Below are positions 5,758-63,225 of a stretch of DNA of 64,000 nt, piece by piece (position 1 is the first letter of the stretch; every line of letters begins with the position of its first letter). Below the pieces are notes generated by a model that was not told the origin of the DNA, did not search any database, and was given only the letters and a program-made list of their open reading frames with translations. The stretch is from Eledone cirrhosa (Eukaryota), in NCBI GenBank assembly GCA_964016885.1, contig OZ024743.1, positions 106,516,001-106,580,000 on the forward strand. Direction: 5' to 3'. Position numbers and translations under genes: made by a program.

Positions 5758-6458
5758 AATAACTAGAAATTGATTAACTTATAAATAAACATGAATAATC
5801 ACAGGAGATAGTTTTTACAAGGGTGTAACCACACATAGCTAGGTAGTTAACTAAATAAAGTTGATCAGAACTTCAAAAATACATACCTTATAATATGATT
5901 AATCTTCCCTGTATATATTCCATTAAAGAAATATATTTCACCAATTAATCGGATGATAAACCAGGGAAGTGGACGCTTGGATTTTCAACAAGGAAGAAGG
6001 TCCAGCGATCCGTGTTTACACTTCAAGATCAAATCATCGACTGGCCAGCACCACGTGTTATATCTACTAGAAATACACACATCATACTAGCTTCGTCCTA
6101 GTGGCGTGAATAGGGTTATCGACAACTAGAAACAGCAGTCGAGTCCTTTCAACAGAGTTAGCTCTTAAATTAAGGAGCCGTATTTATATATCCATATCCA
6201 AAATTAAGATAAATCAAATTAATTTAATCTAAATCCTACCTAGCTATGTGTGGTCACACACTTGTAAAAATGATCTCCTCTGATTATTCTTGTTTATTTA
6301 TATGTTAATCAATTTCTAGTTATTATAAAATGGTCGGACCTACTCGTTAGAATCTTAGAGCTTATTTTACGGGTGATATGGCGCATGTCTTTCTGATATG
6401 ACACCCATAATTTTGATTTAGATTAAATTCATTTGACTTATCTTAATTATGGATATTG
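5758..6458. mobile_element. Family B non-coding hammerhead cassette with inversion, between (TA)n tracts
   Basis: Inverted arms ~5758-5845 / ~6240-6325. Homologous to 42187-43222. Confidence 0.75.
5903..5997 (-). ncRNA. Type I hammerhead ribozyme, U3-A8 variant core (family B)
   Basis: Minus strand: TCTTCCTTG-TTGAAAA-TCCAA...TTGGT-GAAA-TATATTTC tttaat GGAATATA-TA^CAGGGAAGA. Helix I is 9 bp and helix III is long. Confidence 0.7.
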
Positions 6459-6471: not shown

Positions 6472-6674
6472 TAGGAAAAAGTATGATCCCGACGGCAGAG
6501 CTCAAGCCGTTTCAACTGCTATTTCTGGACTCGAAATAGTCCAGAAATAGCCGTCGAAACGGCTTGAGCTCTGCCGTCGGGGTCATACTTTTTCCTATTT
6601 CCCACTCTACTACCCTAAGTATTGAGTACTCTGGTGCGTTATCGTCCATCTGATTCCTTACCACAATTCCTTTG

Positions 6675-7272: not shown

Positions 7273-7467
7273 CGTTTTTTCCCGTTCTTTGCCAGCTAAC
7301 GTTACCACGAACCAAAGTATCGTCTTCCTGTCTTCCTGCGGTTGCAACGTTTTTTGAAATATCCAGTTCTGCGTTTACAGATTGACTTTGTTAGTTTCAG
7401 AAGATCCCGTTAAGGGTGAAAGCAGCGATTCTTTGCTTAAACTTTAATCTGTTATTTTAATAAATAT
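7268..7467 (+). mobile_element. Family E cassette (hammerhead-like C.GAAGA-TCCC-gttaa-GGGT-GAAA)
   Basis: 7398-7467 is nearly identical to 29127-29196. Bounded by (TA)n. Confidence 0.6.
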
Positions 7468-7611: not shown

Positions 7612-7617
<6 letters not shown>

Positions 7618-8078
7618 AGATCAAAAGATGGTTAAAGGAGTTCCATGTATTTTATTATGCGCATTTCAAAAACAAACATCATCATGCAATAATATTTGTG
7701 TTTTCATCAGATAAAAACAGGAGAACATGATATGAAGGCTAAAAAACACTTGTGGATAGTGCAGTTTTAAATCTACATATGAAAAGTGGTTTTAGATTGA
7801 TGTGTGATATTGGGAAAAATATTTTCATATGTAGATTTAAAACTGCACTATCCACAAGTGTTTTTTAGCCTTCATATCATGTTCTCCTGTTTTTATCTGA
7901 TGAAAACAGAAATATTATTACATGATGATGTTTGTTTTTGAAATGCGCATAATAAAATACATGGAACTCCTTTAACCATCTTTTGATCTTATATTATGCA
8001 TACTCCAGTCCTACAAACTGTAGAGTGCTTCTTATCCGATATCTGCATTGCTTTATTGTACTACAATAAAACTCACCT

Positions 8079-8082
<4 letters not shown>
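7612..8082. mobile_element. Family C fold-back cassette with two opposed hammerheads
   Basis: ~175-bp near-perfect inverted arms 7612-7785 / 7822-7995 plus ~85-bp tail. (TA)n on both sides. Third copy at 56361. Confidence 0.8.
7891..7957 (+). ncRNA. Type I hammerhead ribozyme, long helix II (family C); inverted twin at 7650-7716
   Basis: TTTTAT-CTGATGA-[AAAC..AATATTATT.CAT.GATGATGTTTGTTTTT]-GAAA-TGCGCA-TA^ATAAAA. Helix III is the palindrome ATGCGCAT. Confidence 0.75.
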
Positions 8083-8947: not shown

Positions 8948-9129
8948 TGGCAGTATCGGTAGAGGGTCGGACGCCATGCTTTGACGCATAAAATTACGGC
9001 CCTTGTCATTCTGAGTTCAAATTCCGCCGAGGTTAACTTTGCTTTTCAACTTTACGGGGTCGATAAAATAAAGTTACCACTAATGCACTGAGTCATTGCT
9101 GGCCTTGTGCCAAAAGTAGAAACAATTAT
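8948..9129 (+). mobile_element. tRNA-derived SINE
   Basis: tggcagtatcggtagagggtcgg...gagttcaaattccgccgagg...aaagtagaaacaatta. Confidence 0.85.
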
Positions 9130-9518
9130 ATAGGTTTGATTGCACCCTGGTAAATCCAAAGTCGGGAATGGCCATAATAAAATAGAAGAGATAAGAAATG
9201 TGAGAAAAAGGGATTATGGGTAGTTGCAGCATTGTATGGGTGCGTGTTTGAGTGTGTGGGATTGTGTGTTTGCGTGTGGGTGATTGTGATGGCAGAGCCC
9301 TATGTTAGAACTAGGATATTGGGGTGTGTTAAATGTTGAAGGAGTGTGTGGCGGCTGAGGGAGAGAGTCGTTGCGACTTAGTCGGCGCCGTACTGACGGT
9401 GTGACGTTGGCTGTGATGTTGCTGTTGTTGCTGGTGGTGGTGGTTATATATATATATAAATATATTTATTCATTTATTTATTTATTTACATATGTACATA
9501 TATATATATATGTATATG

Positions 9519-10270: not shown

Positions 10271-10701
10271 TAATGGTTTCTTATATAGGCATAAGTACAG
10301 CAAATTTGGGTGAGTGGAAAGTCGATTAAATCGACCCCTGTGCGTGACAAGTACTTTATTTTATCGAACCCGTAAGGATAAAACGCAATGTTAACCTCGG
10401 CGAATTTTGAACTCCCATCATAGAGGGCCGTAACTCTATGCTGCGAAGCATGGCGTCCGACCGTCTACCGATATTGCCAATCCATTGCTCTACTACTTAT
10501 ATCCTTAATAATTGTTTCTACTTTTGGCACAAGGCCAGTAATTACCCCAGTGCATTACTGGTACTTTATTTTATCGACCCCGTAAGGAGGAAAGGCAAAG
10601 TTAACCTCGGCAGGATTTGAACTCAGACCGTAAATGGGCGTAACTCGATGCTACAAAGCATGGCGTCCGCCCCTCTACCGATACTGCCAATCGACCGCCC
10701 C
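10271..10701 (-). mobile_element. Two tandem tRNA-derived SINE copies (~10271-10488, ~10508-10701)
   Basis: Two repeats of gtactttattttatcga.cccgtaagga...tttgaactc...aagcatggcgtcc...tgccaatc. Confidence 0.85.
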
Positions 10702-11085
10702 TTTTATCCTTATATACTTAATAATAGTCATATAAATAAACACACCTCACGAATCGAGAGGTTCATTAAAGTTATATCGATGTATATGAAAACTATATTT
10801 GGTCTGTGACACAAAGATTCATTATGTGTAGTATGAAATAAATATGTTTTGCTTCAGAGTAACTAGCAGCATACGTTTTTTTCGGAATGCAATCCAATAC
10901 TTATAATATACATTAAACTAAATATATTACGTCATTTCCTAACATACTCTCACATGTGGGCATTTATGTCAACAAATACATCTCTAAAATGACATAAAAT
11001 TGCTGGTGATCATAAAACTCAATCCCTCTCTTCTTTTCTGTCTATTTTTTCTATCTAAATAGTTCCTATGTTTATATATGAGGAT

Positions 11086-14151: not shown

Positions 14152-14259
14152 ATACATATATAAACGCAGATAAGCAAGTATGACTGTCAAATACATACAT
14201 CTGAAGGTAGATATACCTAGAATAAAAGCAAAGTAATTATAGAATGTTTTATGCTTACA

Positions 14260-14446
14260 TAATTGTTTCTAATTTAGGCACAAGGCCAGCAATTGCTCAG
14301 TGCTCTACTGGTACTTTATTTTATCGACCCCGTAAGGATGAAAGGCAAAGTAAACCTCGGTGGGATTTGAACTCAGACCGTAAATGGACGTAACTATGCT
14401 GGAAAGCATGGCGTCCGACTTTCTACCGATACTGCCAATCCACCGT
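14260..14446 (-). mobile_element. tRNA-derived SINE
   Basis: Full-length copy of the same family. Confidence 0.85.
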
Positions 14447-15449
14447 TTAATGCTTACATAATACACTCAGAAAACAAGGCCAACAGTGAACAAAACATCC
14501 AAAGGATAAGACACTCGGTTTCCAAACTAGTAAATAATACATTCATAAAAACAAAGCCAATCATGAACTAATTGTTTCTACTAGAACTAAGAGAGCCTCC
14601 AGAATCCCTACCTTGGATATCATCAATATTTCCCAATCCTTGAATCGCAAATGAGTATGAGGAAGACGGTATTTTTCAAGCCGAAGCTGTCAAATTACCC
14701 AGTTTGTGTATAAGAGTAGACCACAAAGCATAATAGTCTATACCAAGTAGACCACCACCATGAAAAAAAGATAAACTATTTAAACGTTAGACCTCTATTT
14801 CGCCTGAAGTAGTGTTTAGTACAAAAGAAAACCATGTTAACCAATTATATATATGGGGACAAGGATGCGTACTTCCTGATAGAACTGACGGGGGGGGATT
14901 TAACTTCCAGCGGCTGTTCGTCATTACAAATCTGGCGGAAATAATTCCCTTTCTAAATCTGAAAACAAATTGTGTTCTTCCTCACCGCATTATAGAGGGA
15001 ATACAAAAAAGAGAATATATATATATATATGAAGTTCATGTTTTTTGCGTCGCCATTTGATATCGTATTTTTGTGATATTCTTCTTCGGTTCATTTCGTT
15101 TATTTCTTTAATGGCTTAGGTAATAGTTAGTTTTTTGTGCTTTGTTGTACGGACTAGACCTCGCAATGCATGACATCTCGTCATCTAGGTATATGGTTTG
15201 GTGGTTTTTAAGCTACGAAAGGAATATAGAAGATGGAACACGGACTATTACGTGATGCAGTCGTATTCGCTACAGATAATAATAGATTTCTTAGTTTATA
15301 TTTTATAGAAACTACGTAATATGACAGCTGAAGCTTAAGAACATCTTTCTTCCCACTTTGGTTGGCGTTGCGGTCTGTGTTCAGTTTACCGAGTTTGGTG
15401 GGTTCGTCTCGGGTTAAGTTTAGGGTATTCTCTCGGTGTATTTTGGACA

Positions 15450-16016
15450 GTTTGCCTTTCATCCTTACGGGGTCGATAAAATAAAGTACCAGTAATGCAC
15501 TGGGTAATTGCTGGCCTTGTAACTAACGTAGAAACAATTATTTAGGGCGGTGGATTGGCAGAATCGGTAGAGTGTCAGACACCATACTTTGCAGCATAGC
15601 GTTATGGCCCTTTATATTCTGAGTTGAAATCCCGCCGAGTAGTTTAACTTTCATCCTTACGGGGTGTCAGGCACTGAGGTTGATTTAATCGACTTTCCCC
15701 TCCCCCAAAATTACTGGCCTTGTGCCTATATAAGAAACCATTATTATTGGTGGGTTGGCAGTATTGGTAGAGGGTCGGAGGCCATGCTTTGCAGCAAAGA
15801 GTTACGGCCCTTTATGGTCTGAGTTCAAATCCTGCCGAGGCTAACTTTGCCTTTCATCCTTACGGGGTCGATAAAATAAGGTACCAGTAATACAATGGAA
15901 TAATTACTGGCCTTGTGCCAAAAGTAAAAACAATTATTATTATTATTATTAGTAGTAGTAGTGAGGGCGGTGAATTGGCAGTATCGGTAGAGGGTCGGAC
16001 GCCATGCTTTGAAGCA
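15450..16016 (+). mobile_element. Head-to-tail cluster of four SINE copies or fragments
   Basis: 3' fragment 15450-15541, full copies ~15544-15745 and ~15748-15935, 5' fragment ~15965-16016. Confidence 0.8.
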
Positions 16017-17225: not shown

Positions 17226-17376
17226 ACGAAGGAAATGTGGTAAGGAACCAGGTGGACCATAACGCACCAAAGTGCCCAATACTTAGGGTAGTAGAGTGGG
17301 TAATAGGAACAAGTAAGACCCCGACGGCTGAGCTCAAGCCCTTTCGACGGCTAATTCTGTACTCAGTACAGAATTA
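17226..17376 (-). mobile_element. Family A cassette, truncated inside a long hairpin
   Basis: Minus strand: taattctgtac-tga-gtacagaatta-gccgtc-GAAA-gggcttgagctcagcc-GTC^ggggtc. Flanked by (TA)n. Confidence 0.7.
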
Positions 17377-17538: not shown

Positions 17539-18150
17539 CGTAAAATAAGAAAATTATTAAATTAACTTACTTACTAAAATATCACTTCCAACTACTTAGT
17601 TTCTGGAATGGAATAAATATATTTTCCGAAGAAGATACAGCATTCCGTCGTCACGCAGGTCTATTCTCATCTAAGTATCCAGGTAAAGCGTGGACACTGG
17701 AAACTTATTAAAAAATAATTCAGTGGATAGGAAATAGCAAAGCGTGGACTGAATTCCTAGCCATTGAGAAAATCACTGCCTCTGCGTCGGTGGCAAATTC
17801 AAAAAGAATCAATCACGTGACATCGAGGTCAATCAGTGGAAAGTGGTTTGCTAATAAGACAGCGGCCTGCTACCATAGCGGCAGTCATGGCCAATATAGC
17901 TCGACAAATAATTTGGAGATAATTATAAAGAATTAATATCTAGTAACATATATATACATACAGAGCAATATCAATGCTAGCAAATATATAGGTTTTGTCT
18001 TAGTAACTTTGTGGCTCAATGCATGGGGTTGCAGAACAATAATATGAGAGACGTAAAATAAGAAAATTATAAAATTAACTTACTTACTAAAATATCACTT
18101 CCAACTAATTAGTTTCTGGAATGGAATAAATATATTTTCCGAAGAAGATA
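17531..18150 (-). mobile_element. Family M partial-tandem cassette (~513-bp period) with degenerate hammerhead at 17588-17659
   Basis: ~107-bp direct repeat at 17531 and 18044. Minus strand: GTGACGA-CGGAATG...CATTCCA-GAAAC-TAA-GTA (C3 is mutated). Confidence 0.6.
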
Positions 18151-18208
18151 TATATATTAACATCTCATTACAGTTGAAAAATGCAAACTTTACTCTCACC
18201 ACAGAATA

Positions 18209-18247
18209 TGAACCTGAAGATTGGGAAAGCATGAAAGTACTTGTTCA
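18209..18247 (+). ncRNA. Minimal type I hammerhead in the 5' pLTR
   Basis: TGAAC-CTGAAGA-TTGG gaaa GCAT-GAAA-GTAC-TT^GTTCA. Helix III is the palindrome AGTACT. One mismatch in helix II. Confidence 0.7.
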
Positions 18248-19675
18248 ATTAACACTTAACATTTAATATTCTACCATACTATTTCATTGTAATATCATTA
18301 TAATTTTAAAGGATTGTAAATAAAACGAGTAAATCAGAGAGGTTGGAATTCCTTTTATTAATATAATCTTCTATACACAATCATACACACTCGTGTATAT
18401 TTATTTTTATATATATATATATTCCTATTATGTATATGCCAACATGTCGGGAAAGCAACACATGAAATCAACAGAATCAGAAAGAATTCTAAAGGAGATA
18501 TCATCGAAATTCTTAACAATTATAACGATGATTGACACTCATTCCTCTATTTTAAGGAAATAGAAAACAATCTACAGACGGAAAACTTATAACTGAACAT
18601 ATAAACTCCGAAATTAAGAATTTAGCTGAAATTATACCAACAGTTATCAAAGATACAAGAGAAAGCCTACCATAACCCGTTTGGTTGTCAGAACTAAACG
18701 AAAGAAATTTTGAAAACAAAACACATCGAATAAGAAAAGAAATGTGGAAGACATGGAAACAATTTCTTAACATAAGAAAACATAACTTCTGGAAACCATA
18801 CACATGCGAAAAATATGTCGAAACACATTCGAAAGGGCTCTCTCTAACGGCACCCATACTCCCTCGTAAATACCTAATGACAGAAATAGCAGGACAACCA
18901 GAAGACGAAACAAAACTCCGATGTGAACTTACATTGACAATATTCAGGACCGACATCACCATTACTCAATGTAAACAAAGCCAAATACGAAGCTATCGAT
19001 GACCAAATTGAAGCCGAAATTTCAAAGCTAACGACTAATAATCTAGCTGAAAAACTACGAGAACTATGGATCAGAGATATCTCAAAAGAAGAAAGCAAAT
19101 CAAGAAAGTTATGGCAGCAGAAACAATTATTTCTGGAATATGCTACAAATTACGGTAAAGACTATGGAACTCTGAGAAAAAGCATTAAAAGTGGACAATC
19201 TCGTCAACACAACATACGCCAGAACACGTGGCAAAACAAACACTCATCTCACATTGAATCAAAGAAGTACTACGGTAAGAACTCTTCGCCTTTTCTACAA
19301 CGCACACAACATGAACAAAAAGCACAAACACGATATATATTCCTTTGGTCAGATCATGAGAAGTAGTAAAACCAGGAGATCATTCTCAAGATCTCAACAG
19401 AGACTACCCACAAGGAACGGGGGAAAAACCGTAGATTAACCAGATCACTCTCAAGATCTCAACAGAGATTACCCACAAAAAACTGGGCGAAAACACGATC
19501 TAAACCTGAAGCAAACCTAGGTCATTTTCCCAGATTGTTAAAAATAATGCTAACAAGAAATGGAAAAATAATATACATAATACCAAAAATAGGACAAAGA
19601 CATAACGAAACTAAATATAATAACACGACCAAAAGTTCATCAAGCAAACACCAACAGGAATATAAATCCTGAACA

Positions 19676-21979
19676 GTGAAAAATCCATTTTTTAACGCCA
19701 TGACAATAAAAATCGGAAAAAGAAAAACTCCAGGAGGAAATATACCCAAAACAACTGAACACATAGATCCTAAAATAATTAATTTATCCAAACGAGTTCT
19801 TGACAATGATGAAATGCAAATTCTGCCAAAAGGACAGAAATTCACAACGACTCCAACAGTCAACCACCAAGAACTGAAGGAGGATACCCAAGAATTCTGT
19901 CGAAAATTACGACTTGTAGAATTCTTCGCTGATAAAAGTAATGAGAGTGGTGAATCACTAGTAAAGAATAAATCAAATTTCACTCCACCAAAAGGAAGAA
20001 ATATCTATCTCGACCAATACATTGACATCCTGTCTAAATATCCTCTTAGACGTAATACTAATGTTAGGCCAAACATTAACAAATCGGAAATGTCTGCACT
20101 TAAACGTATACAAAATGATAAAACAATAATAATTAAACAAGCAGATAAATGGGGTGCAATTGTTATAATAGATGCTGAATACTACAAGGATTTGGCTGAG
20201 GGACAACTGAAAGACACAACATTCTATCATGAAATACCGTCAAATATAGACCACAACATCATGAGGAATATCAACAACCTGGCCTCAAAATACTACAACT
20301 AACTTACTGATAAGGAAAGATACTATATCACCAATTGTGAGCCAAAACACAGCAACCTGTATGGCCTACCGAAAGTTCATAAGTCAAAAGAAATCCAACT
20401 GGCAGTAAAGAACAAAAAAGTGAGTACATTAAATTACTACACCCAATAGACTTAAAACTTAGACCTATTATATCTGGTCCAACATGCCCTCTCCACCATC
20501 TAAGCAATTTTGTTGACATTATTTTGAAACCACAATGTATTCACATACCCAGTTTCATCCGGGATGATATCGACTTCCTGTCCCATCTTCCCAAAACCAC
20601 GGAAACGAATTCGCTTCTACTTAGTTTGGATGTGGTAAGCCTTTACACCAACATTACACATGATAAAGGCGGTTAAATACTGGGTGGAAAAACATAGAGA
20701 AGTGATTCCCACCTGATTGACACCGCCATTTATATTAGACGCAGTCAAACTTATTCTGGAAAACAACACTTTCTTCTTCAATGGAAAGAATTACATCCAA
20801 ATTAGAGGCACAGTAATGGGAACGAAGTTTGCTACTGTTTACGCGAACTCTGTAATGGGATACTTAGAACAACAACTCTACCAAGAAATAGAGGAAAAAT
20901 ATAGCACTGGCTTTAGAAAGTACATTGAAAAGTCTTCGGAGAGATACTTTGTCGAATGTTTCATCATCTGGACAAAATCTCTAGATACTCTGGATGAGTT
21001 TAATATCCTCCTGAATAACCTACACCCGTCTTTTCAATTCACAAAGGTGATGAGTAGTATCAAATTACCATTCCTAGATATAATGGTAATCAAAAACGAC
21101 ACCACCATTACCACCGATATATGTTATAAACACAGACACCCATCAATATCTGAATTTTAAGTCATGCTATCCACCTCATACAAAACGCAACATCCCATAC
21201 TGCCTAGCCAGAAGAATTTGTACCATTGTAGAATATACGAATACCAGGAACAAGCGCCTAACAGAATTGAGAGAATTTTTGCTCAAACAAAAATACCCAT
21301 CTCTACTTATAGAAAATGGCATACGGCGAGCTATAAAAATAGCTATACAACAACTTAGGACAACCCAAGTAAGAATAAACCAACAACTGGTCATACCATT
21401 TACAACCCATGTCACCAGAATATATTCAACACTGCCAAAGAAAACCTACCGATCACTGCTCAAAGTAATGAATTAAAAGGTTTAATCACAGACCGAGCTG
21501 TGACTCTTAGTAAAAGACAGCCGAAAAATGTGAAGCAATTACTAACAAGGGCAAAGTTTGACCTTAACATCAAAGACCAATAATTCACTGTATCTAAATG
21601 CATTGATAGTCTTTGTGGCACATGTCAATCAATACACACTGGTGAATATATGAACACAAATACTGGAAAAATATTCCCAAATGCAAATATGAACTGCAAA
21701 AGCAGAAATCTAATTTACTGCATTAAATGCCCGAATTGTGAAAAATTGTATGTCGGTCAAACTGGAAATGCACTATCGGATCGTGCACGGGTGCACCGAC
21801 AGCAAATCAGAGAACCACATGTCCGTCAGATACCCCTGAGTAACCATCTAGCAACATGTGGTCAGAAAATATTTATAATATTTCCATTCTACAAATTATA
21901 CAGCCCAAGTGAAATCAAGAGAAAAATTAAAGAAAATAATTTTATTGATAAATTCAAACCCAAGCTAAAAGAACAATAA
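19676..21979 (+). pseudogene. PLE reverse transcriptase + Cys-rich linker + GIY-YIG endonuclease, frameshifted and with stops
   Basis: Motifs IINLS..KGQKF..FCRKLRL.EFF, IIIKQADKWGAIVI, YGLPKVHK, LRPIIS, LDVVSLYTNI, YIQIRGTVMGT, RYFVEC (decayed YxDD), LPFLDI, CxxxxCxxC and NLIYCIKCPNCEKLYVGQT. Upstream 18550-19670 is probably the decayed N-terminus. Confidence 0.93.
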
Positions 21980-22377
21980 TAATGTTTAGGAGTATTACTC
22001 CTACTATGACTACGCCTACGACCATGTCGACTACCACCACTAACAACACCAACAACAATAATAATAATAATAAAAGTGATGTTGATGGGGATGATTACTG
22101 AATTTTTTTATAAAAGCCTTAGAAAATGCTATTTTCATTATTTCTAAAAATAGCAAAACAATTGATGCTTTCGATAGGGTCAAATAGAAGTCGTTAGACA
22201 TGCTTAACCAACCGTGATGCGTAAATCAATCAGCTTTAGTAATCCAGTGAAACTACACACCGTTTGGTCGAAATACAGTTTGCAAAACTTAGCATTCTGT
22301 AGCCGCTTTTTACTGTATATAAGGCACACAATCCCATTACAGTTGAAAATTGCAAACTTGACTGTCACCAGAGAATA

Positions 22378-22416
22378 TGAACCTGAAGATTGCGAAAGCA
22401 TGAAAGTAGTTGTTCA
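22378..22416 (+). ncRNA. Minimal type I hammerhead in the 3' pLTR
   Basis: TGAAC-CTGAAGA-TTGC gaaa GCAT-GAAA-GTAG-TT^GTTCA. Helix II is intact and helix III has one change versus the 5' copy. Confidence 0.7.
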
Positions 22417-22532
22417 CTTAACATTTAATATTCTACCATACTATTTCATTATAATATCAGTATAATTTTAAAGGATTGTAAATAAAACGAGTAAATCAAC
22501 AAAGTTGGAATTCCTTTTATTAATATAATATA

Positions 22533-22606
<74 letters not shown>

Positions 22607-22662
22607 TTATATATACATTTATATATATACATATATAATATATATGTATGTATATATATATA

Positions 22663-23723
22663 CAAGGTGGGGAATACAAATTGTTGCAAAATGAAATGCA
22701 AATAGTTTTTGAAAAAAATCGAGAGGTTTGAGATCTGGTGATGTGGGCGGTGGGGGGGGGGGGGCATTCTTCCTTACTCATCCATGCAGGACAATGATCT
22801 CTACACCACTGTTGTGTTACGCAAGCAGTGTGGCTCGTCCCTCCATCTTGTTGTAGATTCCAATTGTCATCGCCATAAACAGATATGCACCATGGCATCA
22901 GTGCTCCTTCCAAAATATCCTTTATGCAAAGTTCTTTGTTAATTTTAACTCCTTGAGGCACACAAATCAGAGGAGACTTCCCTCTTTCAGAAATGGTTGC
23001 CCAAACCATCAGGGATGCTGGTTTCTGTGTTCTGAACACTTTTCCTACATTTGAAGGAATTGATTTGAGACTTTTTGCAAGTACTCGATCATGTTGATGA
23101 TGGTGAGACTGCTGCACAGTGAATAACTTCTCATCTGTAAATATGATGTTTTGCAGCGTGCCATCCTACATACGGTATCAATAACAGTTTACTTCTGGAG
23201 AGTCTCTTTTCAATTGTGACTACAGAAAGAAGCTGCCTAATTTGGAACTTATTGGGTGACATCCCAAGATCATCTCGACATATTCTCCGCATAGTTCTCG
23301 GGGATGTTTCTGCTTCTTCTGCCATTTTTCTAATGGACCTTCTTGGATTGGGGCCTATTTTTTCCCTCACACTTGTAACGAGTGTTGGTGTTCTTCAGGT
23401 GCGAGGGCGTCCGGATTGAGGTCTGTCTTTGGCGAGGAAGTTTCCTTAAATCGATCGATTGTCCTTTTGATCAACATTCTATTGATCTTAAGAATTTTCC
23501 CCAGATTAAATATCTTGGGTGGAGTCAGGCCTTTTTCATGCTTCTCTATAATGAACTTTCTTTTCAATTCTATGGACATTGCAAATAGTTAATACGGTAA
23601 TGTTCTGAAAAATAGTTAATATGGTTATAGTGCATGAATTTCCTACAAATATATTAGTTATATTAGCAACATACGGTATTTTTAAATTGATTTAGAACTT
23701 TGTAACAGGAATTATGCCCCAGC

Positions 23724-23794: not shown

Positions 23795-24111
23795 AACGAG
23801 TAGGAACCCGACGGCTGAGCTCCAGCCGTTTCGACGGCTAATTCTGGTGAATTGGAAAAGAGTCAGTACCCACTCTTTTCTCCTATTAACCACTCTACTA
23901 CCCTAAGTATCAAGTACTCTGGTGCGTTAGGGTCCACATGATTCGTTACCACACTTTCTTTGTTTTATACACACATATATATATATATATATATATGTAT
24001 AAAACAAAGAAAGTGTGGTAAAGAATCATGTGGACCCTAACGCACCAGAGTACTCGATACTTAGGGTAGTAGAGTGGTTAATAGGAGAAAAGAGTAGGTA
24101 CTGACTCTTTT

Positions 24112-26453: not shown

Positions 26454-26501
<48 letters not shown>

Positions 26502-26504
<3 letters not shown>

Positions 26505-26910
26505 ATCTTAATAAATGGAAACTATATTTATAAAACCATATTTATTTTATTATATATATTTCAAGGGCAACCAAGGCAACTTATGGTGCGCTTTAATCAG
26601 ATAAAGGCCACCTTAACGGTTGGAGCTTCCTGGATAGACTATCCAAGAAGCTCCAACCGTTAAGGTTGTCTTTCTTTCCAGGTATGTCAATATTTATTTA
26701 TACAACATATCCGTATTTTATCTGATGACAGCGCACCATAATTTGACTTGGTTGCCCTTGAAATATATATAATAAAATAAATATGGTTTTATAAATATAG
26801 TTTCCATTTATTAATATATTGTGTATTTTCTCCACTAACTTATTGAGTGCTTTATATCAGTTATAAAAATCTTTAAGCTTGTTGAATCCCAACAAATTAA
26901 ATATAACCTC

Positions 26911-26913
<3 letters not shown>
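26502..26913. mobile_element. Family H fold-back cassette
   Basis: Inverted arms ~26502-26606 / ~26717-26822, a nested hairpin at 26610-26667, and a tail with TATTGAGTGC. (TA)n flanks. Confidence 0.75.
26714..26779 (+). ncRNA. Type I hammerhead, long helix II (family H)
   Basis: TATTTTAT-CTGATGA-CAGCGCACCA..TGGTTGCCCTT-GAAA-TATATA-TA^ATAAAATA. Helix I is 8 bp. Confidence 0.75.
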
Positions 26914-29062: not shown

Positions 29063-29283
29063 TTTATTAAAAAAACAGATTATAGTTTAAGCAAAGAATC
29101 GCTGCTTTCATTCTTAACGGGATCTTCAGAAGATTCCGTTAAGGGTGAAAGCAGCGATTCTTTGCTTAAACTTTAATCTGTTATTTTAATAAATATTTGC
29201 TCTACGGTTCTTATATATTTGATATATATTTATATTTATCGAGCCTTCTTTCGATTTTAGTCTTCAAATTTACTAGTATTACT
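29063..29283 (+). mobile_element. Family E fold-back cassette
   Basis: Palindrome centred on TCTTC-A-GAAGA (~29128). The tail is shared with 48275-48361. Confidence 0.7.
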
Positions 29284-29335
29284 ACATATATATACATATA
29301 TATATACATATATATATATGTATATATATATGTAT

Positions 29336-30369: not shown

Positions 30370-30743
30370 ACGAAGGAATTGTGGTAAGGAACCAGATGGA
30401 CGTTAACGCACCAAAGTACTCAATACTTAGGGTAGTAGAGTGGGTAATAGGAATAAGTATGCATAAATATATGTAGGTATGTATATTTCCTCTGATAGTT
30501 TGTAAAATGTTTACATAGATCTATATGATATACATACCAACACACACATATATATCTTAGAAACGATCGTAAAATGATGATTTTTTTTATATAAGCTACT
30601 GTTTCTTTGTTTTTATTCATTGGTTTTATTAATTTATATATATATATATATACATATATATATTCATATATATATATATATTCCTATATATATATATTCA
30701 TATATATATATATTCCTATATATATATATTCATATATATATAT

Positions 30744-31195
30744 AACGAAGGAAATGTGGTAAGGAACCAGGTGGACCATAACGCACCAAAGTACTCAATA
30801 CTTAGGGTAGTAGAGTGGGTAATAGGAACCAGTAAGACCCCGACGGCTGAGCTCAAGGCTTTTCGACGGCTAATTCTGGACCCTTATTGATGTTCTTGAC
30901 CAGTTGGAAGAAGTCATTCTCGAAGGGTGAGAGCAAAGGGTTCGGGGGGGAGGGGGGAGATTTGTAGGTAATAAATCCGAATCTCTCCTTGGTGCCGAAG
31001 TCCTGATTGTCGCAATATCTGTCGTAGAAGAAAGTTCTCCATCTAAGTCTTTTTGCAAATAGATCGATTTTTTGCATGAGCATCCGAAAGTAAAGTTTTT
31101 TCGGTGGGATTGGGATGTTCTTGGTAGAGAAGTCGATGTTGTGTTTTCGCATGGGGCGAAACGGCTTGAGCTCAGCCGTCGGGGTCTTACTAGTT

Positions 31196-31199
<4 letters not shown>
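30744..31199 (-). mobile_element. Naiad-type PLE N-terminal ORF fragment bracketed by family A termini in inverted orientation
   Basis: [52 protein letters not shown] is the typical Naiad-type N-terminus. A further family A tail lies at 30369-30455. Confidence 0.8.
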
Positions 31200-34513: not shown

Positions 34514-35355
34514 CGAGCAGCAGTATCCAGCGTTGCCTTGGTAGGTAAAATAATATCTGCTTTGATGAAAAGGTGTTGATCTTTTGCGACTGCTTCTTGA
34601 TGACTCATCTATGGCCACACACAAGCCGTGCGGGAGAGGGTGGTGATAGCCTCTATCACTGAGAAACGCGGGTGACTGACGAAGGGGCATGTTGGGGGAG
34701 GGAGTTTCGAATTTGAACGAAATCGGTTGAAAAATGTGGGAGTTAGAGCCGAAAAAGGGGAAATTTGAGCGAAAATATGGTATTTTCGAATATTTAAGCG
34801 ACTGCCACGCCCTTTCTGAACTAAGAATCCAAAATTTAAAGCCGTTTTAAGACGTGAAATAATCAGATCTAGCGTAGTGTAAAATTTGAACAAAGTAGAT
34901 TGATTAATGTGGGAGATAGAGCCGAAAAATTAGAAAATAATTTTAAAAGTTGTATTTTTGAATATTTGAGCGGCTGCCACGCCGTGCTTGAACAACAAAT
35001 GCAAAATATAAAGCCAGTAAATGATGTGCAATGAATAATTCTATTTTGCTTTAACATTCGAAGGAAATCGGTGGCAAAGTGTGGGAGCTAGTGCCAAAAA
35101 TCTTATTTTTCGATACCTAAAAAAAGGTGACCCTCTTATCGATTTTTACCTGCAGAATGACCCCGGAATAAATTCAAAAAAACGATACGCTTATATATAG
35201 AAAACATTCCCCGATGACTAATCTATGAGCCTGAAAAGTTTCATGAAAATCGGTCGTAAGATGTAGGCCCCTATAGGTAATACACAGACACACATACAAC
35301 CCCCCCCCCCCCCCATACACATACACACACATACTTAATTTTATATATATACAGA
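34514..35355 (-). mobile_element. Non-autonomous Helitron (Lep1-like architecture)
   Basis: Minus strand begins TCTGTATATATATAAAA, then a (TG)n tract and accgattttcatgaaactt. It ends with a degenerate hairpin (ccaaggcaacgctgga) and CTCG (decayed CTAG), inserted between A and T. Confidence 0.6.
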
Positions 35356-35539
35356 TAATTGTTTCTACTTTTGGCACAAGGCCATCAATTAATCCAGTGC
35401 ATTACTGGTACTTTATTTTATCGACCTCGTAAGGATGAAAGGCAAAGTCAACCTCGGCGGGATTTGAACTCAGATCGTAAAGGGACGTAACCATGCTGGA
35501 AAGCATGGTGTCTGACCCTCCACCGATACTGCCAATCCA
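35356..35539 (-). mobile_element. tRNA-derived SINE
   Basis: Same family as 1853. Confidence 0.85.
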
Positions 35540-36550
35540 TGAGTAAACATATTTCATGAAGTTGGTATATGAAATAATTTGAAATAATTATGCAGAAAGC
35601 TAAGAATGATATGTAAACATATATACGTACAGGTATATAAGTATCAATGCGTATATATATATAATATAAATATAAACAGGCTCACGCTCGCTATAGAAAT
35701 GTATTTGTAAATACTATATGCTTGTGATTATATACGCATTCGTATGGGCGTATGAATGCCGATATATCAACTTCATGGATAAAATCTCGGAGGCATACTT
35801 ATTCACACACGCACATGTTAACGTAAGCCCTCACGCATTCATACATTCACGTGTTTATATTTGCGTGTTTGTTATTTGTGCTACCCATTGTACACGCCTG
35901 ATTTAGCCCGCTGTAAGATATATATATATATATATATTGGGTGTAGGTATGAGTGTGTGTTTTTACGTATGTGGATATGTGTGCGTGTTCATGTTTTCTT
36001 TCAGAATATGTGAATCTATGTGTAACCATTTTCTTTATTCACGGAAGAGATGGAAAAATATAAATGTAAATTTTTGCTTGATATGCAAGTTAGAAAAAAA
36101 TATTATAAGAGAATTTTATAAATGTTCCATTTAACTGGGAATAGTGTTTAATATATTATTATGTGCAATACATTATTTTATTTAACATGCCTCCGTAAGC
36201 ATATCGGTTAAAATTTGCATATAAAATTTACACTTTATAGTCAGAAGTATATATACAGAAACTCAGTAAGAATAAACGCGTTAAAAATGTATCTATAGAT
36301 AAATTTATACGTACATTTATATATATATATTTATAAATGGGGGGGGGGTGCGTATGTGTGTGTGTGTGCATTGGCCGACTGGTCGCCTGCCTGGCTGATG
36401 GCAAGTGGGCCACATGGGGTCCCACGGTAGTACTTTAGAGGCCAATACAGGAACGTTGTTTTCAGAGATAATATCAGACGTCCTACAGAAAGAATATAAA
36501 ATTAAGGAAAAAAAATCAATTCAGCATTCTCGGGTCAATTTTCACACACA

Positions 36551-40304: not shown

Positions 40305-42186
<1,882 letters not shown>

Positions 42187-42190
<4 letters not shown>

Positions 42191-43222
42191 ACAAGAAATT
42201 GATTAACATATATATAAACATGAATAATCACAGGAGATAATTTTTACAAGTGTGTAACCACGGATAGCTAGTTGGATAACAAGTAAATAAAGTTGACTAG
42301 AACTTCAAAAATAGATACATTTTAATATGATTAATCTTCCCTGTATATATTCCATTAAAGAAATATATTTCACCAATTTCACGCAAAGTGGATATTATTG
42401 GATTATGAACAAGGAAGAATAATGTCCAGCAATCCAAGCTTACACAGCGAGTTCAAATTTTCAACTGGCCGCTACCACGTGTTGTGCTTACACATCACAG
42501 CAGCTTCATCTCAGTGGCGTGAGTAGGTATTCGACATCTTGAAACAGTAGTCGATTCCTTTCAACAGAGTTAGCTCTATAATTAAGTATTTATATATCTA
42601 TATCCAAAATTTAGATAGATTAAATGAATTTATTCCAAATCGAAACTGTGGGTGTCATTCCATAACGGCGTGCGCCATATCGCGTGGAAAATAAGCTCAA
42701 AGATTGTATCATGTAGGTCCGAGCATTTTAGTTGTCGAATACCTATTCACGCCACTGAGACGAAGCTGCTGTGATGTGTAAGAACAACACGTGGTAGCGG
42801 CCAGTTGAAAATTTGAACTCGCTGTGTAAGCATGGATTGCTGGACATTATTCTTCCTTGTTGAGAATCCAATAATATCCACTTTGCGTGACTTACCATCT
42901 GATTAATTGGTGAAATATATTTTTTTAATGGAATATATACAGGGAAGATTAATCATATTAAAATGTATCTATTTTTGAAGTTCTAGTCAACTTTATTTAC
43001 TTGTTATCCAACTAGCTATCCGTGGTTACACGCTTGTAAAAATTATCTCCTGTGATTATTCATGTTTATATATATGTTAATCAATTTCCAGTTATTATAA
43101 AATGCTTGGACCTACATGATATAATATTTGAGCTTATTTTCCAGGCGATAGGGCGCACGCCGTTATGGCATGACACCCACAATTTCCATTTGGATTAAAT
43201 TCATTTAATCTATCTTAATTTT
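42187..43222. mobile_element. Family B cassette: one complete ~545-bp unit on minus plus an inverted, permuted copy
   Basis: 42187-42535 is inverted at 42733-43096, and 42610-42728 is inverted at 43100-43222. Confidence 0.8.
42851..42948 (+). ncRNA. Type I hammerhead, U3-A8 core (family B); mutated twin at 42335-42418 (minus)
   Basis: TCTTCCTTG-TTGAGAA-TCCAATAAT...ATTAATTGGT-GAAA-TATATTT...GAATATA-TA^CAGGGAAGA. Confidence 0.7.
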
Positions 43223-43251
43223 ATATATATATATATATATACATATATATG

Positions 43252-43355
<104 letters not shown>

Positions 43356-48275: not shown

Positions 48276-50101
48276 GTTACACGGTTCTTATATATTTGAT
48301 ATATATTTATCCTTATCGATCCCTCTCTGGATTTTAGTCTTCAAATTTATTATTATTACTATATATATATATATATATATATATGGTGGTGTATTTGTAT
48401 GCGTGTGTGTGTATTTGTGTATGTATATGTTGGTATATATCAAGCAGCAGCCTAGAAGCATTTTGACCTTTCATGTAATGATATATAATGACATGCTTCC
48501 ACCTAATAGCAAATCTTACGCGCATCGGTTATTGTTTTGTAATATATGACTAATTTCTGAAGTTGTTTGCGTGGATTTAGGAAGCAAGCATTTTTATAAC
48601 ATATATAATGAATGTTTACACACCAACTGAATCATGATAATAAAACCCAAGTTGATATACAGTATACAGCATTGCATGGTGTTAATAAATGACACTGTTT
48701 GCAATGTCTATGGTGAGCCAAGAATGATCTCTTTGATATAATCGGGAGGAAATTAAAGATTTAATTAAATCATAATTCATGCCATTAAATATTTGTGAAT
48801 CTAACAGCTTCATTAACCATAAGGTTATCTGACTTTACTTTGACTGATCAGCTTCTTTATAATAATAATAAAAATATTTTTTAAACAATAAGGAAAAAAT
48901 TAATTTTTATTTGTTATGGCCGTAATTTCTTACATAGCTTATTTTGAATACGTTTGCTATGCAGTAGATTGCTATGTTGTTTTATTAATTTTGTATAGAT
49001 CGTTTTGTGTGTTAACAAAGCAGATCATAATATTCAATGTTGAATAGTAATTATTAAACCCTATTTTTCCAAAATGGTCTGTCGTATCTTGATAAAACCA
49101 TAATACATATTTTGAAGGTGATCTCACAATTAATTCTTTCAAGTCGGACGACGGCGCAAACATTTCTTCACGGCCCGTACTCTTATTGTTCACCTATATA
49201 GGTGGCAATGACGGAACGAAAATTGTGTTGGTTGGAACAATTATTTTTCAAGATGTCTTTCACTCAACCTTCAATTACAATCCATGATGGGTGACTCTCT
49301 TCTCCGGGGCGCTGCTAATTTAAATCACTTCTGCTTTTGACGTTAATTGGCTTATGGTAATCTAATGAAGTATGTGAGAATTTCAATAAGAACTATAAAT
49401 CGCATCGGGGTAGTTTTATGAGAAATATCAACGATAACTAGTAGTTTCTATTATAAGACTTTGGAAAACGGTTTCGACTAAAACTATGTAGTCCGTTCAT
49501 TTTAGATATGGTTTAAAAGATGTTTAGAAAATGTCCACATAGCATCGAATCCTACTCATGGATTAAATAAATATCTGAGACAGTGTGACCCTATCTGGTC
49601 ATATTCTGACCCTAGTTTGATTTTTGCATAGAAATATTTCGCTATATATACAAGGCATTATCGATCATTATAAGACGTGATAACATTTTAATGTATTTCA
49701 GCAAATCATCGCTAACGTTATTTCTATTTAAGAAGTAATTAATCAATATAGTTTCGTGTTCTTTAGGATTCACATTTGTTTGAGACTATGGAGTTGGGTT
49801 ACAGTCTATGGGGTAAGATCAATGCTTTGTTGCCGCAGTTCAAATCTATGTTGCATTTCTGACAAAGTTCATTGGAAAATAAAATAAATATTCAATTAGC
49901 AGCATGGCCTTTATCTCACTGGAAAGTTAATATGACTAAGCCATTTATTATTTCTATTATAACTTTGATATTTCGGAATGCAAGATGGATATTTTATTAT
50001 ACGTCTTACTGGTCAAATGCTCTAATTCATAGACATAGTTAATGTAATTACAGTTTGAATACACAGACACACACAGCGAAACATATGTATATATATATAT
50101 A

Positions 50102-50772
50102 TTGGTAAAAGGAAAAGAAAATGGTGACAAATTGTTCCCAGTGAAAAATAGTTTAATTAGGAATAAGTAAAAATTAGTGTATTGGTTAGTATTCAGTTTT
50201 GGTTTTTAAGTTTTACCGTTTGCGTATTTCTAAAGCTTTTCAAAAATAATTTTGATATTTTTGATATTTTTGATGTTCAAACTTCCAATAGGGCTTAATT
50301 TCTGTGTAATAGAAAATAGATATGTGTATTGTAATATGTGTGTGTGTGTGTGCGCGCACATATATACATGTATATATTGTACCTTTTGATTTTTAATTTG
50401 GAATTTTAATGTTGGTATAGATATATTATTATTATAATGTATTATACTGTGTTATATATAATTCCTGCTCTATATAACAAAATTTGTTTAGATTTAAGTT
50501 GGTGACTTTGGACTATATTTGTAATATGGTTCTTAATGTTATCTACATCCTTAGTTATTATAATTTTATTATTTTTATCTTCATTTTTATTATCATATAT
50601 CTTTGTAAGACATTAGTGTATGTAAACTCCATATTCTTCAGAGTTTCTGGCTTGTATCTGCCGAAATTACCTCTTGTTGTTTTGATTGCCCTGATGAGTG
50701 CTTAATAGGACGAAACATTGTCGGCTAATAAAAACTTTTGATGTATTAAAGGATTCTTTGTTTTACTCTCTT

Positions 50773-50775
<3 letters not shown>
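50102..50775. mobile_element. Family F fragment (50102-50270) fused to a family I copy (50290-50775) with a hammerhead at 50685-50729 (+)
   Basis: ATTGCC-CTGATGA-GTGCT taat AGGAC-GAAACATTGTC^GGCTAAT. The body is the reverse complement of 40506-41000. Confidence 0.75.
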
Positions 50776-52472: not shown

Positions 52473-52868
52473 GGGCGGAGTATTGGCAGTATCGCTTTAT
52501 TTCGGCTTTTTTACATTCTACATTCTACATTCACCGGAGATCAACTTTGCATTTCATCAATGGAAGGTCAATGGAATTAGGACACCTCAATTACTAGTGT
52601 CAATCACATCAATTCTCCCACGCCAGAAAATCAATTGTCTCTTGCATAATTTAGAAATCATTATTTCATTTCATCTAGGTGGTGGATTGGCAGTATCACT
52701 AGAGGGTCGCACGCCATGATTTGACGCAAAGAGTTACGTCCCTTTACGATCTGAGTTCAAATCCCGCCGAGGTTAACTTCGCCTTTCATCCTTACGGGGT
52801 CGATAAATTAAAGTACCAGTAATGTACTGGGTAATTGCTGGCCTTGTACCAAAAGTAGAAACAATTAT
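52473..52868 (+). mobile_element. Old degraded SINE (52473-52665) followed by a younger SINE copy (52678-52868)
   Basis: Same SINE family motifs. Further degraded copies lie near 44400-44525 and 58770-58940. Confidence 0.8.
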
Positions 52869-54034
52869 TTCATTTCATGTAAATTTACTTTTAGAAATAG
52901 TGAACAATATCATCATAAGTATGCGTTTTATGACTAGATATTACTGATTTTTAATAAAGAGCAGGGTATTAAATCTATATGTATAACCGGAAATGAAAAT
53001 TGAAATATTTTGGTAGCGATGGGTTGGGTGGCTATAAAAATAGATGCAGGAAATTGAACATATGCTTTATGGAGAAGATTTCTTTTTTTCTTTCCAGAAG
53101 CTTCTCAATGACAACTTTAATTGACAATATGTTATTTTGAATTAAGAATCGTTCGAATGAGAAAATATAATCGTGAATCTTGTCTTGGTTACGCAGAAAA
53201 AAGCAAAACAGTTAAATCATCTGTACTCCAACGTAAAAAAGTTACATTATGTTCGATTTATATCGATTATCCGAGTATAAAATATAAGACTATCATTTCC
53301 CTCGCGCTGCATTACTTACTCATATGAATTTCCGAGCATTCTGAGGTATGAATTCGTATTAATTACAAATCTTATATGATTGAGTAAGCAGCGACCGGAT
53401 TCGTTGCATTTCTCTTTGGAAAACTTCGGACAACATTATAAAAACATATTTAATAATCTACTGTTGATTTAAATCCTTTAATATCTTGTCGTGAAGTGGA
53501 TTTTTATGATGATATTGTTCATTATTAAATAAAATAATGTTTTCTAATTTATATAGAAGCCCAGCAATTTTCTGATTTCCACATGTTTATGGAGGGGCCT
53601 ATACCGTTGATGGTACTCACTGTATCCTTGAAAACATGGTTTCAGCGAGATTAGGTGGTGAGTGAAATTGTTTTTGTGGTAAGTGTTATCGCGTAAGGAT
53701 TCCTCGGGAAATCTGCTCAAATTAGAGCGTCATTTATGTATATGTGTCTGTGACTTGAACAATGAAATTAAAAACGAAATTAGGAGCTATGTGGTTAATT
53801 AGTACTATATTGTTTTACGATCATTTCAGAGGTTTGATTGCTCAGAGGAAATCGAAATATTGACTAGTAAAAAAGTGTGAGATAGTGAAAGACAGTGACA
53901 TATAACAATGCTGCAAAAAAGCACAAGCATAACCAATCTAATAAATGTGAATGACAAGAAGAATGGTATTGTGTGGAAACCGAATAAATAAATATGCAAA
54001 TAAAAATTATATATATATATACATTTATATATAA

Positions 54035-56363: not shown

Positions 56364-56525
56364 AACAAAAGATGGTTAAAATAGTTCCATGTATTTTACT
56401 ATGCGCATTTCAAAAACTAATATCATCATGCAATAATATTTGTGTTTTCATCAGATAAAACAGGAAGACATGATATGAAGGTTAAAAAACACTTGTGGAT
56501 AGTGCAGTTTTAAATCAACATATCA
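56361..56525 (-). mobile_element. Family C single-arm copy with hammerhead at 56394-56460
   Basis: Highly similar to 7615-7780 and embedded in (TA)n. Confidence 0.75.
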
Positions 56526-57140
56526 ACATATATATATATATCAGATCAATAATTTGTGGTCTTTAATTTATGTATATACATATATACAACATGCTTCCGA
56601 TTAAACAGATAGTTTTCGCAAAATCAAATATATGCAAAATGGTCAAGTGATGATACGATCTATGTGAATTTAACACGAATAATGAGAAAATATAACATTT
56701 GTCAAGCTGATCTTACTTCACATCACAACCCAATTTATGTTCAGACCTGGCTTACCTCTTCTTTGACGTGACGTCAGGCAGTACTAGGGACTTTATTGTT
56801 ATCTTTACTTGCCACTAGCAACGGAGAGAGCTTAAGACACCATGTTTTGTCTTTTCTTAACAGAGAGATGACCTATCGCTGATGAAATGGCCCCACGCCG
56901 AATTACTTAATACGTGCCATCGTTACCCAATATTCTGCACATGGTTGCACCTTTCGGTGCAGGACCAGCATTTAACAGTAGAAACATCTTACCCAAACGA
57001 ATTCGTTCCCCCGCTGTTTAACGAAATTGTGCACTCGGGGCAGCCGGGTTCGAATTTCAAAAATACGAAATTAGTTTTCCATTGAGTGAGTGAGGCAACG
57101 GCCGGAGCTAAACCCATTCTATTCGATTTATTTCGTTTCC

Positions 57141-61281: not shown

Positions 61282-62547
61282 TTTACATATACACAAACTA
61301 TACAAAGTCATATATATATATGTTTTTGGCAACCATTCACGATGTGGCTCAATGACGAATTATTTAATTAAATAATCAGGGCAATATACAATAAAGTATG
61401 TCCATATAATCATTTGCTAAGATATATACACCATCTCCTCTCCGAATCAGCATAATCAACCACACAAAAAAAACAATTAAACCAGGCTATAAGATTAAAA
61501 GGCACCTATGAAGAAATAATAGATAAATAAACGATATCCATATATTCGCGATCAACAGCTATATAATATTTACCCACCATTTCACCATTTCAATAGCACG
61601 TGGAAATCGATTAAATATATCGTCAACCATATACAATTAGGTATAACATTAAAGTTAGAAGAAAAAATGTATATAAACATACCAATATTACGTGTCTACC
61701 CCAGGGTATTTCATTCGCTTTTGGAAATATCCGATCAAGGATAAATTCACGAGCTTCGAAATCATCAGGAAACAAACTCACTTGGACGAAAACTTTTCTT
61801 AAATGATCCCCGCCAGAAACGAATTCAAAATGGCTAAGAACTGTGACGTGGCAGTGGTCAAGTCAGAAACAATGTGATGTCTTTGTATAGTTTGTGTATA
61901 TGTAAATCTTTATATTTCATAATATCCCATAAGGTTGAGATGTAATTTAGGCAATATTAGGCTGCGCTTTCTAGCAACCAGCCCACTCGCCGTAAGGCAC
62001 GAATTACAATCTTTCTGACTTGACCACTGCCACGCCACAGTTCTTAGCCATTTTGAATTCGTTTCTGGCGGGGATCATTTAAGAAAATCTTCGTCCAAGT
62101 GATTTTGGTTCCTGATAATTTCGAAGCTCGTGAATTTATCCTTGATCGGATATTTCCAAAAGCGAATGAAATCCCATGGCGTAGAAACGTAATATTGGTA
62201 TGTTTATATACATGTTTTCTTCTAACTTTAATTGTATACCTAATTGTGTATGGTTGACGATATATTTAATCGATTTCCTCGTGCTATTGAAATGCTGGGT
62301 AAATATTCTATAGCTGTTGTTCGCAAATAGATGGGTGTCGTTTATTTATCTCTTATTTCTTCATAGGTGCCTTTTAATCTTATATCCTGGTTTAATTGTT
62401 TTTTTTATGTAGTTGATTATGCTGATTCGGAGAGGAGATGGTGTATATATCTTATCAAATGATTCTATGGACATACTTTATTGTATATTGCTCTGATTAT
62501 TTAGTTAATTAATTCGTCATTGAGCCACATCGTGAATGGTTGCCAAA

Positions 62548-62639
<92 letters not shown>

Positions 62640-63220
62640 AGACTTTGTATAGTTTGTGTATATGTAAATATTTATATTTGATAATCTCCGATAAGGTTGA
62701 GATGCAATTTAGGCAATATTAGACTGCACTTTCGAGCAACCAGCCCACTCGCCGTAAGGCACCAATCACATTCTTTCTGACTTGACCACTGCCACGTCAA
62801 AGTTCTTAGCCATTTTGAATTCGTTTCTGGCGGGGATCATTTAAGAAAAATCTTCGTCTATGTGAGTTTGTTTCCTGATGATTTCGAAGCTCGTGAATTT
62901 ATCCTTGATCGGATATTTCCCAAAACGAAACGTAATCTTGGTATGTTTATATACATTTTTTCTTCTAACTTTAATGTTATACCTAATTTTGTATGGTTGA
63001 CGATATATTTAATCGATTTCCACGTGCTATTGAAATGGTGGGTAAATATTCTATAACTGTTGATCGCGAATATATGGCTGTCGTGTATTCATCTATTATT
63101 TCTTCATAGGTGCCTTTTAATCTTATAGCCTGGTTTAATTGTTTTTTTGTGTGGTTCATTATGCTGATTGGGAGAGGAGATGGTGTATATATCTTATCAA
63201 ATGATTCTTTGGACATACTT

Positions 63221-63225
<5 letters not shown>
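61277..63225. mobile_element. Family G array: one inverted and two tandem ~670-bp units joined through (TA)n, with one hammerhead per unit
   Basis: Units 61277-61878 (-), 61880-62551 (+) and 62641-63222 (+). Hammerheads at 61692-61773 (-), 62107-62188 (+, CTGATAA) and 62870-62931 (helix III deleted). Confidence 0.8.

Follow-up and report, generated by a model that had tools for sequence, protein, structure and literature searches.

Two inverted pairs of an ORF-less unit

The window, i.e. the whole 64,000-nt stretch of DNA that was analysed, is AT-rich and animal-type, and is dense in (TA)n and (CA)n arrays. Self-comparison after masking of simple repeats, together with alignments, revealed a repeat, Family B, at two loci, each of which is a head-to-head inverted pair; sensitive searches found no further copies in the window. 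At locus 1, the left arm (42730->42185, minus strand) is one complete unit in the order head, body and tail, and measures 545 nt plus the TA that it shares with the right arm. With a private 14-nt deletion in loop II of the ribozyme described below taken into account, the unit is ~559 nt long (about 560 nt), and the length of this arm equals one unit to within 2 nt. The right arm (42729-43222, plus strand) consists of a body 5'-truncated at unit position ~190, the tail and then 123 nt of the head. The two arms meet head-to-head with a 2-nt TA overlap and are 92-93.5% identical according to BLAST, with 6-8% difference and one indel. In the right arm the tail motif (43083-43096) is separated from the head, which begins at 43100, by only 3 nt (ATA), a spacer that blends into the TA repeat in the left arm.

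At locus 2, the left arm (6235->5758, minus strand) starts ~90 nt into the head, comprises the last ~45 nt of the head, the body and the tail, and stops at the same tail position as the left arm of locus 1. The right arm (6236-6459, plus strand) contains the last ~92 nt of the unit followed by 132-138 nt of the head, and ends in a short TA run. Identity between the loci is 83-90% over aligned columns, defining two subfamilies ~85% alike. Since both the flanks and the central junction differ from those of locus 1, locus 2 represents an independent insertion. The original prediction, made from the sequence, had postulated tail-to-head adjacency in the plus copy at locus 1 and an independent copy at 5758-6458 with the same continuity. 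Both claims were borne out, the former by the right arm of locus 1 (43083-43096, then 43100) and the latter by the right arm of locus 2, where tail is followed by head between flanks and a centre of its own.

Tail-to-head continuity is thus present in both right arms and head-to-body continuity in both left arms, and together they define a closed unit of ~560 nt. The decisive trait is the passage of head into body, known from the two left arms in the window. The unit had also been described as circularly permuted. Closure of the unit holds, but free permutation does not: in the four arms the outer ends lie at two fixed unit positions, and the inner 5' ends alone vary. The longest stop-to-stop stretch in the 24 frames of the four arms is 69 aa, leaving Family B (33% GC) without protein-coding capacity, and the RT and GIY-YIG ORF of autonomous PLEs is absent from the arms. 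The unit is therefore ORF-less, as had been proposed. An RT ORF between tail and head, named in advance as refuting evidence, was not seen, both left arms running from head to body without an ORF. Both left arms end at the tail-to-head junction (43097..43100, plus strand), which would be the first start site of reverse transcription. The head (43100..43222, plus strand) equals a one-sided PLE tail extension, and its end would be the second start site. In other words, what was originally called the "head" is the PLE tail. Family B had no matches in metagenome contigs or viral contigs.

A 127-nt stretch just upstream of the head (42965..43091, plus strand) is a possible intron. A donor-like AG/GTATGT, seen in the locus 2 copy, and an acceptor-like TTTCTAG just before the head bracket 124-127 nt; both are damaged in the right arm of locus 1. 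The exon-side G of the donor (42964) is present in most reads too, and there is no spliced joint among the five read joints listed. PLEs keep introns.

A variant hammerhead motif

Folding and a wide descriptor identified a type I hammerhead motif at 42851..42948 (plus strand) in the right arm of locus 1. Helix I (42851-9/42940-8) and helix III have 9 bp each. The core reads UUGANAA (42860-6), with a U3-A8 pair, and GAAA (42912-5). A U-U (U10.1-U11.1) lies at the base of helix II, which has 5 bp at locus 1 and 4-5 bp across copies, and loop II is 33 nt long here and 32-33 nt in intact copies. All of the type I core positions 3-9 and 12-14, A15.1-U16.1, H17 and the 3-8 pair are present (UUGANAA, GAAA, AUA). 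Self-cleavage is predicted at AUA/C (42939..42940, plus strand), a descriptor match with weak support from reads. The claim of one hammerhead per unit cutting at 42939/42940 is upheld as far as the motif is concerned, through folding, descriptor and pair counts at this very site. U3-A8 and U10.1-U11.1 are both natural hammerhead variants, and U3-A8 is covariant (Perreault et al. PMC3088659).

The motif is intact in two of three copies. The second intact copy lies at locus 2 (5903..5997, minus strand; core 5988->5982, first base after the cut 5911). The third, in the left arm of locus 1 (42335..42418, minus strand), is damaged, having intact helices, a core G5->C change and a shortened loop II. 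Across the three copies, the 23 pairs comprise 68 cells, every one of which is paired; covariation is absent, as the helices never change on both sides. With gap columns counted singly, the loci differ in 3 of 64 ribozyme columns (one of them N7); the corresponding figures are 11 of 34 for loop II and 60 of 282 for the remaining columns (p=0.001). Helices of at least 8, 4 and 7 bp arose in 0 of 20,000 shuffles in each of two arms, and helices of 6, 4 and 4 bp in 4 and 0 of 20,000, respectively, at thresholds chosen post hoc with the motif already known. The Family B ribozyme faces outward, as in the other hammerhead families of the window. We conclude from these sequence comparisons that the motif is real, and predict that it cleaves itself.

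Rfam gave no match to Family B at gathering score or up to E=10, its only match in the window being family A (see below). Two features speak against activity: the G5->C change in the third copy, and the energy of the hammerhead fold, which exceeds by 4.1-5.4 kcal/mol that of the minimum-energy fold, where the loop II hairpin captures G12-A13. Such an energy gap could point to a regulated, protein-assisted or poor ribozyme. An alternative core, CUGAUUA at 42899, was rejected, as helix I is not adjacent to it and the motif is not conserved. We also noted an 18-bp long-range stem (42805-42823 with 43013-43030) that encloses the hammerhead and extends its domain; it is kept at both loci, with one-sided changes.

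Family B in sequencing reads

Reads or contigs from four of eight listed runs (X1, X5, X6 and X7) were placed on 42731-43214. The family is deep, with 924 contigs in X1 and 2827 and 2536 reads in X6 and X7, values that reflect depth and not copy number; 15 contigs came from X5, a second organism. About 800 reads cross the tail-head junction in each of two raw-read runs, a single restriction site being the start of many of them. The junction is also bridged by one X1 contig with at least 31 nt on either side. Depth in X1 drops from 130,912 at 43089 to 24,416 at 43107, as it should if the junction is where most copies end.

Several sharp read ends (42905/42908, 43041/43044, 43083 and 43184) coincide with AATT sites, and a read start at 43157 sits in CATG in most reads; all were rejected as element ends and attributed to the restriction libraries. 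Three boundaries lie off restriction sites. One is a loose end at 42940 (98 reads, perhaps from one locus); the other two, at 42941 and 42942, are strand-switch joints. Of the eight ends that the four strand-switch joints have, two fall within 42940-42942 (p about 0.006 over 200 nt). Boundaries at the predicted cut are a lead, to be read with the direction of the joints not given and a nearby hairpin that could promote them.

In X1, coverage of the 5' half of the ribozyme is about 20-fold lower than that of its 3' half, and in X5 this half is uncovered. One X1 contig does extend across 42850-42941; at the end of one X5 contig, the 3' strand of helix II is changed. The majority of the family may therefore depart from the window copies or lack the full ribozyme; coverage dips of similar size arise from divergence alone elsewhere (43003-43019).

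Insertion into TA arrays with a PLE-like layout

TA arrays adjoin all four outer ends of Family B; positions inside TA arrays, or no more than 5 nt away from one, make up 9% of the window. The 3' end of the left arm of locus 1 runs into the array at 41652..42187, its likely target; others lie at the right end of locus 1 (43222..43352) and at the end of the left arm of locus 2 (5670-5758). As the ends sit inside (TA)n, a target-site duplication is indistinguishable there.

At both loci a 5'-truncated copy stands next to an inverted copy, and reads contain four strand-switch joints. An extension that continues the unit past its main 3' end is present on one end only (123 nt at locus 1, 132-138 nt at locus 2). 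Published PLE copies are likewise 5'-truncated, lie next to an inverted copy and carry a tail of 30-40 bp at one end (Craig et al. PMC8557442; Arkhipova et al. PMC3846280), the Family B tail being three to four times that length. Naiad and Hydra elements target (TA)n (Craig et al. PMC8557442). Furthermore, in work with a purified PLE protein, both strands were cut and extended, and synthesis began at two internal positions of the RNA that delimit the tail (Frangieh et al. PMC11167929). The combination of an inverted 5'-truncated copy with a one-sided tail is the PLE signature; this layout, absent from the original prediction, is the strongest clue to PLE machinery. Continuity of tail into head, taken by itself, is a general PLE trait and no sign of a circle.

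Three other hammerhead-bearing families of the window show the same inverted layout (7617-8080, 26500-26912 and 40409-41652), with tails of about 87-105 nt. For none of these families (A, C and D) does the tail occur again upstream in the window. Family B is set apart by a second occurrence of its tail sequence 560 nt upstream, without an intervening ORF.

Other elements in the window

A decayed PLE-like element at ~18059-22526 (plus strand) contains an RT-like frame (score 0.95-0.96) as well as a C-terminal GIY-YIG frame (E 2.7e-7) preceded by cysteine motifs, from which we take it to be Neptune-like. Its direct repeats (18162-18364 and 22331-22526) each carry a small hammerhead core (18214 and 22383) with U-U at the base of helix II; a PDB search with the RT-like frame was uninformative. 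Frames inserted beside its 3' repeat (22533-23592, minus strand) presumably resemble a Tc1/mariner transposase, and the one frame searched there had no match in Pfam. Neither this element nor the other families of the window match Family B in sequence.

Family A (40409-41652 and 50107-50774) has a canonical hammerhead (Rfam match 41563-41607), inverted arms that are 99% alike and a ~105-nt tail ending in a hairpin, and has a TA array in common with Family B. Families C and D (7617-8080, 56374-56526 and 26500-26912) are inverted pairs in (TA)n with 87-89-nt tails and dimer-type hammerheads with a palindromic helix III and a long helix II. Tails of 85-140 nt thus seem to be the norm in this genome, as against the published 30-40 bp. 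Family H (7396-7451, 29080-29285 and 48281-48361) is a small palindrome with a CUGAAGA/CAGAAGA core, GAAAGC and an ~89-nt tail that is also found alone at 48281.

At 61327-63224 lies a three-arm structure, both inverted and direct, with arms of ~570-650 nt, a CUGAUGA core and a GTATGT motif downstream; it may represent a further closed unit, and a piece related to it is present at 4709-4930. Family G (822-938, 6474-6672, 17229-17363, 23801-24102, 30373-30461 and 30748-31190) comprises many short inverted and tailed copies in TA arrays, one of which adjoins locus 2 of Family B. Motif scans found no hammerhead in it, and its frame at 30870-31196 (minus strand) resembles, on our assumption, a PLE N-terminus. 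Finally, there is a ~190-nt SINE-like family (1831-2045, 5169-5363, 8948-9131, 10334-10728, 14235-14460, 15451-16011, 35337-35540 and 52678-52870), partly in tandem, with tRNA-like A/B-box motifs recognised by eye; ARAGORN reported no tRNA genes in the window.

Proposed mechanism and alternatives

Family B is probably a non-autonomous PLE of the non-LTR retrozyme type. A Penelope RT/GIY-YIG protein would have copied it in trans, using as template an RNA that exceeds one unit in length. The tail-head joints imply a template of such length. The window contains neither a tandem dimer nor a master copy, the longest arm at the two loci being one unit, and no helper element with ends matching those of Family B. 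In the proposed scheme, a tandem or read-through copy would be transcribed past one unit, and the ribozyme would cut at 42939/42940, freeing monomers that are perhaps ligated into circles. A dimer of the helper protein would nick both strands of the TA repeat, and reverse transcription would begin at two fixed sites, the tail/head junction and a position 123-138 nt further on. Both cDNAs would stop early and be joined 5' to 5' over a 1-2 nt overlap. The originally proposed dispersed, TA-embedded, retrozyme-like unit derived from circular or multimeric RNA is supported in so far as it fits all tests made.

The cut site is read through in all three arms that span it, and their template must accordingly have been uncleaved or re-ligated. 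A circle has, in our estimate, a little less than an even chance of being this template, and an uncleaved linear multimer a little more. The arm of exactly one unit favours the circle, as chance would produce it in a few percent over four arms by a rough estimate. The preference for unprocessed RNA observed in vitro with a PLE favours the multimer. That all four arms are no longer than one unit is weak evidence, since most arms of other families are short as well. A tentative and more specific version, which we consider possible though on balance doubtful, is direct insertion from circular RNA: hammerhead circles of 560 nt would be primed at two fixed positions by a Penelope enzyme dimer, which would copy no more than one lap and so yield inverted pairs and not tandem arrays. 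The left arm of locus 1 would then be a complete lap, and cleaved monomers would be the source of any arms that begin at the cut site.

Alternatively, Family B may have spread as a PLE derivative while its hammerhead is a dead or blocked relic, all copies stemming from uncleaved read-through RNA of tandem arrays. This overlaps with the mechanism preferred above, the ribozyme step being the sole difference, and it accommodates both the read-through in three of three arms and a minimum-energy fold that is not the hammerhead fold. It also agrees with in vitro results, in which hammerhead mutants left PLE insertion unimpaired and unprocessed RNA was the main template (PMC11167929), and with eight of nine Xenopus dimers showing no cleavage (bioRxiv 10.64898/2026.07.22.740005). 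Conservation of the core and helices alongside variation in N7 and loop II, as well as the three read boundaries at 42940-42942, makes this explanation unlikely.

The copies could also be no more than pieces of pseudo-LTRs (pLTRs) from a long autonomous PLE in which the head occurs a second time in the terminal region, in which case no independent 560-nt unit would exist. Indeed, 5'-truncated inverted pLTR pairs with tails are the common PLE remnant, and other families of the window have that appearance. The linker frame, moreover, reads ELTLLKG(I/L)D at both loci, which we take to be faintly reminiscent of PLE C-termini. Nevertheless, both left arms, which belong to different subfamilies, pass directly from head to body with no ORF, and the tails of families A, C and D lack the upstream recurrence in the window that the Family B tail displays. 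We therefore regard this origin as improbable.

It is more improbable still that Family B is a non-autonomous rolling-circle DNA element (Helitron/Helentron-associated), with joints derived from DNA circles and a hammerhead present as a passenger or by chance. Head-to-tail joints and microsatellite neighbours, both found in Family B, are traits of such elements, which are defined by a terminal CTRR with an upstream hairpin or by subterminal inverted repeats with a 3' hairpin. Family B does have a CTAG 8 nt inside the tail end, but this is not terminal, and among the inverted repeats listed there is neither a subterminal pair nor a hairpin at either end. Furthermore, the arms are head-to-head with variable inner ends, and the ribozyme is selectively conserved and faces outward as in other hammerhead families. 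An assembly artefact or a local fold-back duplication, suggested by the position of the palindromes beside long TA runs, where assembly is error-prone, is hardly credible and mainly refuted by the reads, given that the arms differ by 6-8% and an indel, that two loci with different centres have a common layout, and that independent runs cross the junction and also show strand-switch joints.

Relationship to known retrozymes and PLEs

Family B works like a non-LTR retrozyme (PMC7229834, PMC7761336, PMC4209133) and, judging by this analogy, is likely a member of that group. Both are ORF-less repeats with GC below 50%, one type I hammerhead per unit, a stable helix III and a closed head-to-tail unit, and both co-occur with PLEs; in the non-LTR retrozyme literature, axolotl HHR_Amex2 is likewise reported to have a U-U at the helix II base. 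At 560 nt the unit is longer than the metazoan non-LTR retrozymes described by Cervera and de la Pena 2020 (170-400 nt; PMC7229834). Its length is within the range of 51-972 bp found by Li et al. 2026 (bioRxiv 10.64898/2026.07.22.740005), who derive retrozymes from PLE pLTRs and also report monomers that are dispersed. Unlike non-LTR retrozymes, Family B forms inverted pairs with a one-sided tail in (TA)n, with no tandem array at the two loci of the window, and has the U3-A8 core and a 32-33-nt loop II. The words inverted, tail and microsatellite are absent from PMC7229834, and in bioRxiv 10.64898/2026.07.22.740005 "tail" is absent and "inverted" appears only in the title of a reference.

With the endonuclease-bearing PLEs Neptune, Naiad and Hydra (PMC8557442, PMC3846280, PMC11167929) Family B shares 5'-truncated copies, an adjacent inverted copy, a tail at one end and (TA)n targets. 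Further features in common are a hammerhead upstream of the RT start sites and, possibly, a retained intron. Family B differs from these elements in lacking an RT or endonuclease ORF, in its tail of 123-138 nt versus 30-40 bp, and in its full 9-bp helix III as opposed to a minimal dimer-type motif. Chlamys elements such as MRC1 are similar in being ORF-less PLE derivatives that form pLTRs and head-to-tail insertions, whereas they are green algal, mostly without a canonical hammerhead and often multicopy tandems (PMC8557442).

The derivation of retrozymes from PLEs has already been published; what appears to be new in Family B is the full PLE insertion signature on a retrozyme-type unit, together with a variant ribozyme. 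Neither that inverted-plus-tail signature nor this core is described for a retrozyme-type unit in the search listings and passages that were covered, and the string U3-A8 is absent from the 40 papers, of 45, that were listed.

Implications

The enzyme that spreads animal retrozymes and the role of the PLE hammerhead are stated as open questions (PMC7229834, PMC7761336, PMC8557442), and the link of retrozymes to PLEs has been argued from co-occurrence and pLTR similarity (bioRxiv 10.64898/2026.07.22.740005). Hammerhead surveys anchored on CUGANGA and short spacers can miss whole families. If the one-lap reading from circular RNA is true, Family B would be a very deep family whose ribozyme, with U3-A8 and a long loop, has escaped Rfam and CUGANGA-anchored searches, and its copies would provide evidence from the genome in favour of the circle step that has been postulated in the PLE/retrozyme cycle. 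The unit has a known length and two start sites that can be mapped, which allows statistics of copy ends to separate circular, cleaved-linear and multimer templates. Most importantly, an ORF-less hammerhead unit that itself bears the PLE insertion signature makes the assumed spreading route of retrozymes testable.
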